Shown here piece by piece: positions 3,325 through 4,722 of a DNA stretch of 64,000 nucleotides. Source of the stretch: Escherichia phage vB_EcoM-VpaE1. The translations under genes and the position numbers were made by a program. Position 1 is the first letter of the stretch; each line of letters begins with the position of its first letter. The stretch lies in the sequence record KM657822; one strand, 5' to 3'. The notes beneath the pieces were generated by a model, which was given only the letters and a program-made list of their open reading frames with translations, did not search any database and was not told where the DNA came from.

Positions 3325-3402
3325 GGGAGATTGACGGTAATTGGTAAACCTATCTCGCTTAGAACGAGATGTTTGAGGGTTCGAATCCCTTGTCTCCTAC
3401 CA
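3325..3402 (+). tRNA. tRNA-Leu (TAG), short variable arm
   Basis: Anticodon stem ATCTCG/CGAGAT with loop cttagaa, T-arm GAGGGTTCGAATCCCTT, discriminator A, CCA; class-I length. Confidence 0.5.
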
Positions 3403-3409
3403 AATTAAT

Positions 3410-3485
3410 GCAGGTGTAGCAAAATGGTTATGCGGCTGACTCTTAATCAGTAAGACGATGGGTTCAATTCCCTCCACCTGTACCA
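3410..3485 (+). tRNA. tRNA-Lys (CTT)
   Basis: Paralog of the 2181 tRNA with compensatory anticodon-stem changes; loop ctcttaa; T-loop TTCAATT; CCA. Confidence 0.55.
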
Positions 3486-3491
3486 GATATT

Positions 3492-3567
3492 GGGGTCATA
3501 GTTTATATGGTTAAAATTCGAGTTTTGCAAACTTGGGAACTGAGTTCAATTCTCAGTGACTCCACCA
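3492..3567 (+). tRNA. tRNA-Ala (TGC)
   Basis: Anticodon loop tttgcaa, T-arm CTGAGTTCAATTCTCAG, acceptor GGGGTCA/TGACTCC, CCA. Confidence 0.6.
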
Positions 3568-3573
3568 ATTAGT

Positions 3574-3648
3574 GCATCCATAGTTTAAACGGGAAAATTA
3601 CAGTCTTCCAAACTGAGGTTGAGGGTTCGATTCCCTCTGGATGCTCCA
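3574..3648 (+). tRNA. tRNA-Gly (TCC)
   Basis: Anticodon loop cttccaa, T-arm GAGGGTTCGATTCCCTC, acceptor GCATCCA/TGGATGC, CCA. Confidence 0.6.
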
Positions 3649-3654
3649 AATAAT

Positions 3655-3731
3655 GCTGCTTTCGTATAATTGGCTATTACACATCCCTTGTAAGGATGGA
3701 AATGCAGGTTCGAGTCCTGTGAGCAGCACCA
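3655..3731 (+). tRNA. tRNA-Thr (TGT)
   Basis: Anticodon stem CATCC/GGATG with loop cttgtaa, T-arm GCAGGTTCGAGTCCTGT, CCA. Confidence 0.65.
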
Positions 3732-3826
3732 ATTCAGAGGTCAAGTGAAAGACCGCTGGTGTCAACTGAAGACCGTAACAAATTCCACGGAGTTGAGTTA
3801 GCGGCACAACTTCAGACCTCTTTCAT

Positions 3827-3901
3827 ACTCGCTTAGTTTATATGGTAAAACATCACCCTTACAAGATGAAGAAAAAGGTTCAAGTCCTTTAGTGAGTACC
3901 A
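3827..3901 (+). tRNA. tRNA-Val (TAC)
   Basis: D-stem GTTT/AAAC, anticodon loop cttacaa, T-arm AAAGGTTCAAGTCCTTT, CCA. Confidence 0.6.
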
Positions 3902-3902
3902 T

Positions 3903-3980
3903 GTTCCAGTATCCCAATTGGCAGAGGATGCAAGCTCAAACCTTGTACTAGTGACGGTTCGAATCCGTCTTGGAACACCA
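3903..3980 (+). tRNA. tRNA-Leu (CAA), short variable arm
   Basis: Anticodon stem GCAAG/CTTGT with loop ctcaaac, T-arm GACGGTTCGAATCCGTC, discriminator A, CCA. Confidence 0.5.
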
Positions 3981-3999
3981 ATTTTGAGAGGCTATTTAG

Positions 4000-4557
4000 A
4001 TGAGATATTTGAAGTATGCTTCATGGATTTTCCTAGCTTTACTAGAACCATTTGCAGCAACCCTAGCAGTCATCTTAGCACCTTTCGTAGTTCCATTCTA
4101 CAGTGAGAAGAAAGGACATCTACCTTTTGGATTCAGATGGATGGAGACCTATGACAACCCAATTGATGGTGATGAAGGCCACGTTAAAAGATGGGCTAAG
4201 ATTAGAAAGATTGGTAAGCTGGGTGTCTACATGCAGAGAGTTGGATGGCTCTGGAGAAACAAAGCTTATAACTTCTCTTACCATGTATTAGGAAGAGATG
4301 TAAAAGATGTTACTAAGTGGAAAGGTAATATCAACGTAAGTTCTAACCCTGAAGATAATCAGACTGGTTATCTCCTAATGTGGAACAGTAATGCTTGGGG
4401 ATTATTCGCTTTTATCCCATCAATTAAAGTCTTTGGTAAACAGTTTTACTGGAGAATTTATGTTGGGTGGAAACTTAAAAGTGTTGTCCCAGAAGAAAGA
4501 GCATTCTCAAGGGAAAGAGTTATGTTGGCATTCTTTATTCATCCACTGAGAAAGTAA
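4000..4557 (+). CDS. hypothetical membrane protein embedded in tRNA cluster
   Basis: 185 aa ORF with SD-like GAGAGG upstream; hydrophobic N-terminus (WIFLALLEPFAATLAVILAPFVVPF); Trp-rich. Confidence 0.45.
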   Translation: MRYLKYASWIFLALLEPFAATLAVILAPFVVPFYSEKKGHLPFGFRWMETYDNPIDGDEGHVKRWAKIRKIGKLGVYMQRVGWLWRNKAYNFSYHVLGRDVKDVTKWKGNINVSSNPEDNQTGYLLMWNSNAWGLFAFIPSIKVFGKQFYWRIYVGWKLKSVVPEERAFSRERVMLAFFIHPLRK

Positions 4558-4565
4558 AGATTTAA

Positions 4566-4641
4566 AGGGGATTAGTTTACAAGGTTAAAACCTCGGTCTT
4601 TGAAATCGAAGAAGTTGGTTCAATTCCAACATCCCCCGCCA
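4566..4641 (+). tRNA. tRNA-Gln (TTG)
   Basis: D-stem GTTT/AAAC, anticodon loop ctttgaa, T-arm GTTGGTTCAATTCCAAC, discriminator G, CCA. Confidence 0.6.
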
Positions 4642-4643
4642 AT

Positions 4644-4722
4644 GCTCCATTACTCCAATTGGCAGAGAGGCCAGACTTAAAATCTGTGTTATGTATCGGT
4701 TCGAATCCGATATGGAGTACCA
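4644..4722 (+). tRNA. tRNA-Leu (TAA), short variable arm
   Basis: Anticodon loop cttaaaa, T-arm ATCGGTTCGAATCCGAT, discriminator A, CCA; D-stem covaries with the 3903 tRNA. Confidence 0.5.

Follow-up and report, generated by a model that had tools for sequence, protein, structure and literature searches.

A long variable arm is taken, in textbooks and in the tRNA-identity literature, as a hallmark of bacterial tRNA-Leu. A type-I tRNA-Leu(CAA) has been described in Streptomyces coelicolor (Fan et al. 2019, PMC6614811); it is charged by an actinobacterial leucyl-tRNA synthetase (LeuRS) that makes no use of A73 (PMC6614811). In animal mitochondria, A73 and A14 are among the features that determine tRNA-Leu (PMC9976931). 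The LeuRS of Escherichia coli depends on A73, the A15-U48 Levitt pair, G18G19, A20a and contacts of the D loop with the T loop, and requires neither the anticodon nor the long arm (reviewed in PMC9976931); A14 is also listed among its determinants (Fan et al. 2019, PMC6614811). Engineered E. coli tRNA-Leu deprived of the arm (Larkin et al. 2002; Asahara et al.) is still charged, as reviewed in PMC9976931, and this charging requires that A73 and the tertiary contacts of the D and T loops are intact (PMC9976931). Here we analyse a 64,000-nucleotide (nt) stretch of DNA from Escherichia phage vB_EcoM-VpaE1 (sequence record KM657822; hereafter the window), in which three tRNA genes with Leu anticodons carry no long arm. 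We consider it likely that these genes are functional class-I tRNA-Leu, most probably charged by the host LeuRS, and that they decode the abundant UUA, UUG and CUA codons of the phage.

Three tRNA-Leu genes with short variable regions

The initial annotation of the window had placed tRNAs with Leu anticodons and A73 at 3325, 3903 and 4644, with variable regions of only 5-7 nt, and had left open whether the anticodons were wrongly registered, a long arm had been mis-folded or these were unusual class-I-like Leu tRNAs. Cloverleaves were obtained with ARAGORN; the lengths given include the encoded CCA, and the segmentation into stems and loops is that of the ARAGORN folds.

3325..3402, + strand: tRNA-Leu(UAG), class I, 78 nt (ARAGORN; Rfam RF00005, 44.5 bits)
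Segments, 5' half: GGGAGAU UG(A) CGG UAAUUGGUAAA CCU A UCUCG CUUAGAA CGAGA
Segments, 3' half: UGUUU GAGGG UUCGAAU CCCUU GUCUCCU A CCA
3903..3980, + strand: tRNA-Leu(CAA), class I, 78 nt (ARAGORN; Rfam RF00005, 43.6 bits)
Segments, 5' half: GUUCCAG UA UCC CAAUUGGCAGA GGA U GCAAG CUCAAAC CUUGU
Segments, 3' half: ACUAGU GACGG UUCGAAU CCGUC UUGGAAC A CCA
4644..4722, + strand: tRNA-Leu(UAA), class I, 79 nt (ARAGORN; Rfam RF00005, 47.5 bits)
Segments, 5' half: GCUCCAU UA CUC CAAUUGGCAGA GAG G CCAGA CUUAAAA UCUGU
Segments, 3' half: GUUAUGU AUCGG UUCGAAU CCGAU AUGGAGU A CCA

ARAGORN and Rfam agree on the three places, and these two independent tools put the anticodons where the initial annotation had them, so that a wrong registration can be set aside. 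The folds give variable regions of 5, 6 and 7 nt, from which no long arm can be formed. All three genes exceed the RF00005 gathering score of 29, and their E-values of 3e-7 to 5e-8 place the tRNA-Leu calls far beyond chance. None of them has a variable region of 10 nt or more forming a stem-loop, as in class II, and each combines a Leu anticodon with a short variable loop, as in type I tRNA-Leu. The second of the two explanations, unusual class-I-like Leu tRNAs, is thus the right one according to ARAGORN, Rfam and the published isotype scores of the orthologues in Shigella phage Sf14 (given below).

The anticodon loops are 7 nt long with U33 and A37 in each case, CUUAGAA (UAG), CUCAAAC (CAA) and CUUAAAA (UAA), and the three genes have the same T loop, UUCGAAU. 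In the UAG gene, the anticodon lies at 3360-3362, the 5-nt variable loop UGUUU at 3370-3374, A73 at 3399 and CCA at 3400-3402. The gene has an irregular D arm, in which U8-G9 is followed by an extra nucleotide, the stem (CGG/CCU) is weak and the loop is UAAUUGGUAAA; in the ARAGORN fold, the acceptor and D stems are separated by three nucleotides (U, G, A). The CAA gene has its anticodon at 3937-3939, the 6-nt variable loop ACUAGU at 3947-3952, A73, an encoded CCA and a D arm made of the 3-bp stem UCC/GGA and the 11-nt loop CAAUUGGCAGA. The same 11-nt D loop, on the 3-bp stem CUC/GAG, is found in the UAA gene, together with G1-U72, the anticodon at 4678-4680, the 7-nt variable region GUUAUGU at 4688-4694, A73 and an encoded CCA.

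The Ser and Tyr tRNAs of the same array served as internal controls. They are long-armed, as had been claimed, at 90, 93 and 88 nt, and ARAGORN folds the extra arm in each.

2979..3068, + strand: tRNA-Ser(UGA), class II, 90 nt (ARAGORN)
5745..5837, + strand: tRNA-Ser(GCU), class II, 93 nt (ARAGORN)
1581..1668, + strand: tRNA-Tyr(GUA), class II, 88 nt (ARAGORN)

Leucine identity elements are retained

The three Leu genes all carry A73 followed by the encoded CCA. The CAA and UAA genes have U8, A14 and A15, and their variable loops end in U; in the UAG gene, A14 and A15-U48 are found only in the Leu-type register, owing to the extra nucleotide after G9. G18G19 and A20a lie in the D loops, each of 11 nt on a 3-bp stem; the CAA and UAA genes have the loop CAAUUGGCAGA, and the UAG gene has UAAUUGGUAAA. 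Their T-loop partners U54, U55, C56 and A58 are present as well, and the T-loop bases are invariant in an alignment of 50 sequences. Read from the sequence, every known determinant of the E. coli LeuRS is present in the three phage tRNAs.

Moreover, when the tRNA bodies were compared with 718 viral tRNAs (∼25% of them Leu) after masking the anticodon and removing the variable region, 10-13 of the 20 nearest bodies were Leu for each of the three genes. Among the tRNAscan-SE isotype models, Leu ranks first for the orthologues of Sf14, with scores of 67.4 (TAG), 49.1 (CAA) and 60.2 (TAA) (PMC12482277). The TAG gene of Sf14 is of the allele called type B below, not the type-A allele of VpaE1. The 3:70 pairs of the VpaE1 genes are G-C, U-A and U-A, so the G3:U70 of AlaRS is absent from all three. 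SerRS needs a long arm, and the other synthetases read anticodon bases that do not occur in these tRNAs. By these established identity rules, no competing synthetase identity fits the three tRNAs.

Conservation and variation among related phages

A search with nt 3000-5200 of the window matched 256 phage records, including Escherichia phage finno (98.2% identity) and Salmonella phage Felix O1 (97.7%). By this identity, the source phage is a Felixounavirus (Ounavirinae), ∼98% identical to Felix O1. We fetched 34 related loci with the terminase as anchor. In every fetched Ounavirinae locus with an array, the Leu tRNAs measure 77-79 nt, the Ser tRNAs 90-93 nt and the Tyr tRNAs 83-88 nt. The CAA gene is at least 97% identical across its full 78 nt in most of 290 matching phage records, and the UAA gene is conserved in the Ounavirinae loci. 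The three genes are labelled tRNA-Leu in GenBank, and >250 related genomes carry the same annotation.

The differences among relatives keep the structures intact. Anticodon-stem variants of the UAG gene are compensatory (AUCUCG/CGAGAU, ACCUCG/CGAGGU and ACCAUC/GUUGGU). In Erwinia phage phiEa21-4 (Kolesnikvirus), three Leu tRNAs, with anticodons CAA, AAG and UAA, are short as well and diverged in sequence; the stems of its homologue of the CAA gene differ in sequence and retain pairing. Among Felixounaviruses, two dissimilar class-I Leu(UAG) alleles occupy the place between Ser(UGA) and Lys(CUU). One, which we call type A, is the 78-nt form with the irregular D arm found at 3325-3402; the other, type B, is canonical, 77 nt long (GCACCUA...GGUGUA) and present in some phages.

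To count base pairs, we used a segment-based alignment built from the ARAGORN structures of 46 distinct phage class-I Leu sequences; a MAFFT alignment was not used for this purpose, as it puts the type-A UAG genes, at their leading base, and the UAA genes, in the T stem, out of register. Across the 46 sequences, each of the 20 stem positions is paired in 83-100% of cases, with 2-6 pair types at 19 of them. All 46 sequences have U48, and 45 have A73. In the 50-sequence alignment, A14, A15, G18, G19, A20a, A21, U33, A35 and U48 are invariant along with the T-loop bases, and A73 is found in 49 of the 50. This pattern of conservation and compensation indicates that the three Leu tRNAs are under selection and are not decaying copies.

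In Salmonella phage Si3, a hybrid tRNA (5001-5079 of its locus, corresponding to 3903-4722 of the window) has its 5' part from Leu(CAA) and its 3' part from Leu(UAA). The hybrid comes from recombination within the common CCAATTGGCAGAG, with loss of the DUF7338 open reading frame (ORF; 4000-4557 in the window) and of tRNA-Gln(UUG), and it has mismatches in the acceptor and D stems.

Leu codon usage of the phage

In the 63 ORFs of the window, TTA accounts for 26.6%, TTG for 13.0% and CTA for 10.8% of the Leu codons, so that the three codons matching the short-armed tRNAs make up 50% of the phage Leu codons. E. coli uses mostly CTG for leucine. We then asked what these codons stand for by aligning NrdA, NrdB, NrdD, ThyA and other conserved proteins with their E. 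coli and T5 homologues. TTA, TTG and CTA align most often with Leu and next with I, V, F or M, and CTT and CTG behave in the same way. Judging from these alignments, the phage uses the standard code.

Distribution of short-armed tRNA-Leu genes

To see how far the design extends, we scanned IMG/VR with a pattern that accepts both arm lengths, counting the tRNAs in the contigs matched. A 5-6 nt loop was found in 27 of 170 Leu tRNAs, whereas all 42 Ser tRNAs and 20 of the 22 Tyr tRNAs had kept the long arm. In contigs L003-L122, C13 is present in 17 of 25 class-I Leu tRNAs versus none of 124 class-II ones. Only 4 contigs mix the two Leu classes versus 11.2 expected, while 6 are entirely class I and 24 entirely class II. 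Further phage groups were identified by BLAST with the type-B UAG allele followed by ARAGORN. Annotated tRNA-Leu genes of 74-77 nt were confirmed in Cronobacter phage CR9 (Vequintavirinae) and Vibrio phage 6E35.1a (Straboviridae), and likewise in Enterococcus phage Bop (Herelleviridae), cyanophage P-RSM6 (Kyanoviridae) and Mycobacterium phage Tonenili; Streptomyces phages were also matched by this allele.

In bacterial genomes, a scan accepting the short spacing only gave at least 141 short-armed Leu genes in at least 120 genome stretches, mostly from Actinomycetota. The genera among the matches listed include Mycobacterium, Nocardia, Rhodococcus, Gordonia, Corynebacterium, Arthrobacter and Bifidobacterium. 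These actinobacterial genes have a D arm GCC-CAAUUGGCAGA-GGC, with the same loop as in the VpaE1 CAA and UAA genes, a 5-nt variable loop ending in U, and A73. Short-armed tRNA-Leu in Actinomycetota thus extends far beyond the one published Streptomyces case. Among the matches listed, the actinobacterial genes (UAA, CAA and UAG) are mostly single chromosomal genes, and three matches with 9-25 tRNAs each look like phage or prophage arrays. The 80 titled rows of bacterial matches listed contain no Enterobacteria.

Full-text literature searches yielded no discussion of short-armed tRNA-Leu in phages. The Felix O1 genome paper annotates the three genes as tRNA-Leu and does not mention the missing arm (PMC3185647), and a 2025 study of the Sf14 tRNAs lists the genes without commenting on the arm (PMC12482277). 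Short-armed Leu tRNAs are common in phages and hardly discussed. The initial annotation took class II as the norm for bacterial tRNA-Leu. This premise is correct for E. coli, T4 and T5, but it fails as a universal rule because type-I tRNA-Leu occurs in S. coelicolor (PMC6614811), in many Actinomycetota and in several phage families.

The tRNA array and its neighbourhood

The three Leu genes belong to a large array, whose gene order is conserved in the related loci fetched and which also contains two small ORFs.

1080..5917, + strand: tRNA array of 25 co-oriented genes, containing all three Leu genes (ARAGORN)
4000-4557: small ORF, DUF7338, within the array
5009-5743: small ORF, DUF7217, within the array

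At its gathering score, the Rfam tRNA model recovers 23 of the 25 ARAGORN tRNAs, missing Met(cat) at 1333-1409 and Tyr(gta) at 1581-1668. The latter gives only a sub-threshold tRNA-Sec match in a permissive Rfam scan, and the Tyr tRNA is listed as 'Pseudo' in the Felix O1 genome paper (PMC3185647). A promoter scan of the array found 12 candidates versus 11.9 expected, i.e. chance level. A tRNA-Arg(ACG) follows Leu(CAA) directly in many relatives (four of the loci, for example); ARAGORN found none within 3981-4565 of the window.

The 256-nt spacer between tRNA-Ser(UGA) and tRNA-Leu(UAG) (3069-3324) contains no convincing gene. Its folding energy is -70.5 kcal/mol (z = -2.98), with 1 of 200 shuffled sequences equally stable, and a long hairpin at ∼3243-3318 ends near the 5' end of tRNA-Leu(UAG). 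Stable small RNAs and processing elements occur in the T4 and T5 tRNA regions, and this hairpin could be of either kind.

Directly upstream of the 25-tRNA array, positions 27-914 (+ strand) hold the 3' part of a gene with DUF2828 and DUF7788, a weak vWA match and an assignment to PHROG 850, 'RNA-binding protein'. We take this architecture to resemble the Ro60/TROVE type. Bacterial Ro proteins partner tRNA-like Y RNAs, and the upstream gene raised the idea that Y RNAs might be hidden among the tRNAs. This idea was dropped, as neither a Y RNA nor YrlA came up when 1-6400 was scanned permissively with Rfam.

How the short-armed tRNAs may work, and alternative explanations

The explanation that we favour is that the three genes are working tRNA-Leu molecules in which the long arm was replaced by a loop of 5-7 nt and the remaining tRNA-Leu body was kept. 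The 25-tRNA array would be transcribed with the three genes in it, host enzymes would process the tRNAs, whose CCA is already encoded, and the host LeuRS would charge them with leucine. The outcome would be a boosted decoding of UUA, UUG and CUA, and possibly of other CUN codons, in a phage of 39% G+C that appears to use UUA, UUG and CUA far more than its host does. The enterobacterial LeuRS is expected to read A73, A14, the A15-U48 pair and the G18G19/A20a elbow instead of the arm. Because it does not read the arm, the arm would be dispensable in Leu and not in Ser or Tyr, and this would explain the pattern of the array, with short Leu and long Ser and Tyr tRNAs.

Several observations weigh against this explanation. 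No charging of the S. coelicolor tRNA-Leu(CAA), a natural type-I molecule, was seen with the E. coli LeuRS (PMC6614811), and the enzyme has been stated to be one that 'only charges type II' (Fan et al. 2019, PMC6614811). We infer that this failure is explained by C48 of the S. coelicolor tRNA, and hence by a missing A15-U48 pair, the phage tRNAs having U48. The searched literature contains no aminoacylation or expression data on these tRNAs. The UAG gene has its irregular D arm, and the UAA gene has a C27-U43 mismatch or bulge in the anticodon stem. GenBank or RefSeq labels the UAG gene of Si3 and the UAA gene of phiEa21-4 tRNA-OTHER or pseudo. Finally, the Rfam register of the UAG gene, 3326-3398, lies one base to the right of that of ARAGORN. 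We rejected this shifted register, which would destroy the A73-CCA end common to nearly every tRNA of the array.

The shift is also what could be cited for an artefact, in the form of mis-registered anticodons or false-positive tRNA calls. With ARAGORN and Rfam in agreement on all three genes, with 7-nt anticodon loops carrying U33 and A37, and with >250 related genomes annotated alike, we regard such an error as practically out of the question. It is also very improbable that the tRNAs are charged with another amino acid, which would amount to a recoding of UUA, UUG or CUA. The unusual class-I body is the sole point in favour of this. Like CTT and CTG, and as strongly as these, TTA, TTG and CTA align predominantly with Leu in the E. 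coli and T5 homologues; the determinants of AlaRS, SerRS and HisRS are absent as far as can be read from the sequence, and the published isotype models rank Leu first. Recoding was thus rejected on the homologue alignments of conserved enzymes.

Somewhat less improbable, and still unlikely, is that the three are poor substrates or non-substrates of LeuRS, serving as relics, nuclease decoys or processing or structural elements of the array transcript. The failure of the E. coli enzyme on the one natural type-I tRNA-Leu assayed (PMC6614811) would fit, as would the irregular UAG D arm, the tRNA-OTHER or pseudo labels in some records and the fact that Si3 tolerates the loss of its CAA gene through the CAA/UAA hybrid deletion. 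However, the anticodons, A73, CCA and all LeuRS determinants are conserved in diverged phages with compensated stems, and a decoy would have no need of the full identity set. Moreover, at the UAG position one class-I Leu(UAG) allele has taken the place of another, and this speaks for the decoding capacity itself being maintained.

An addition to the explanation that we favour is that the short arm hides the Leu tRNAs from host tRNA-directed toxins or nucleases for which the long arm is the recognition feature of class II tRNAs, so that Leu decoding would survive an abortive-infection attack or host tRNA depletion. The rarity of contigs that mix the two classes hints at selection at the level of the genome, and C13 accompanies the loss of the arm, which makes the short form look like a settled design and not a recent accident. 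However, Ser and Tyr keep their long arms and would stay exposed, relaxed constraint with deletion bias accounts for the pattern equally well, and the clustering within contigs could also stem from common ancestry of the tRNAs of a genome. A long-arm-specific toxin that acts on tRNA-Leu when phages infect Salmonella or E. coli is not known, which also counts against this addition, and we rate it as doubtful. In its fullest form, the short-armed tRNA-Leu would be a distinct and widespread phage lineage, recognizable by C13, by U48 at the end of a 5-nt loop and by a frequent G1-U72, and kept to hide from nucleotidyltransferases of the MenT3/AbiEii type or similar nucleases; we hold this to be equally doubtful. 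Hiding from long-arm-directed toxins (AbiEii, MenT3) is not directly supported here. If it were true, leucine decoding would continue while the host Leu tRNAs are disabled, and phages would have a structural route of tRNA defence evasion beyond anticodon-loop mutations. As a corollary, the enterobacterial LeuRS would naturally charge type-I tRNA-Leu, contrary to the published statement.

Taken as functional tRNA-Leu, the three genes have consequences for how this tRNA is viewed. A classic Salmonella and E. coli phage, its subfamily and several unrelated phage families encode only short-armed Leu tRNAs. They offer a natural experiment that agrees with the identity rules established by mutagenesis, in that the LeuRS determinants are kept and the arm is lost only in Leu. 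They predict that the enterobacterial LeuRS charges natural type-I substrates, and they may provide compact natural Leu-tRNA scaffolds for engineering. They also carry a warning for annotation, as isotype models may flag such genes as 'OTHER' or pseudo.

Comparison with known tRNA-Leu

For comparison, we fetched the Leu tRNAs of E. coli K-12, leuX (CAA), leuZ (UAA), leuW (UAG) and leuQ (CAG; leuQPV), and those of T4 and T5. The Leu tRNAs of E. coli, T4 and T5 are 85-87 nt long with a variable stem-loop of 13-15 nt, whereas those of VpaE1 have 78-79 nt and 5-7 nt, respectively. The anticodons CAA, UAA and UAG of VpaE1 are those of leuX, leuZ and leuW. The UAA tRNA gave no match in a BLAST search in distant mode (E ≤ 10) against 5,426 complete E. 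coli genomes. In the rest of the molecule, the VpaE1 CAA and UAA genes share an unusual D arm with leuX, leuZ, leuW, leuQ and the T4 and T5 genes, in which an 11-nt loop of the form N-AAUUGG-Y-AGA sits on a stem of 3 bp; the D loops of the E. coli tRNAs are G/AAAUUGGUAGA or G/AAAUCGGUAGA, and the D loop UAAUUGGUAAA of the VpaE1 UAG gene resembles the T4 tRNA-Leu D loop AAAUUGGUAAA. U48 closing the variable region, A73 and the T loop are common to the Leu tRNAs of VpaE1, E. coli, T4 and T5, and the G1-U72 of the VpaE1 UAA gene is also found in leuZ. Two positions differ: position 13 is C in the VpaE1 CAA and UAA genes versus G or A in the class-II Leu tRNAs, and position 37 of the UAG tRNA is A in VpaE1 and G in leuW.

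The type-I tRNA-Leu(CAA) of S. coelicolor has a short 5-nt loop like those of VpaE1, but it is a cellular gene and has C48 in its loop ACAGC. Animal mitochondrial tRNA-Leu(UUR/CUN) also combines a class-I architecture with Leu anticodons, as in VpaE1. However, the mitochondrial tRNAs have degenerate D and T loops and their own mitochondrial LeuRS, whereas the VpaE1 tRNAs have canonical elbows of G18G19 and T loop. Finally, the Leu tRNAs of VpaE1 look like natural versions of the arm-less constructs, which are laboratory molecules derived from E. coli.

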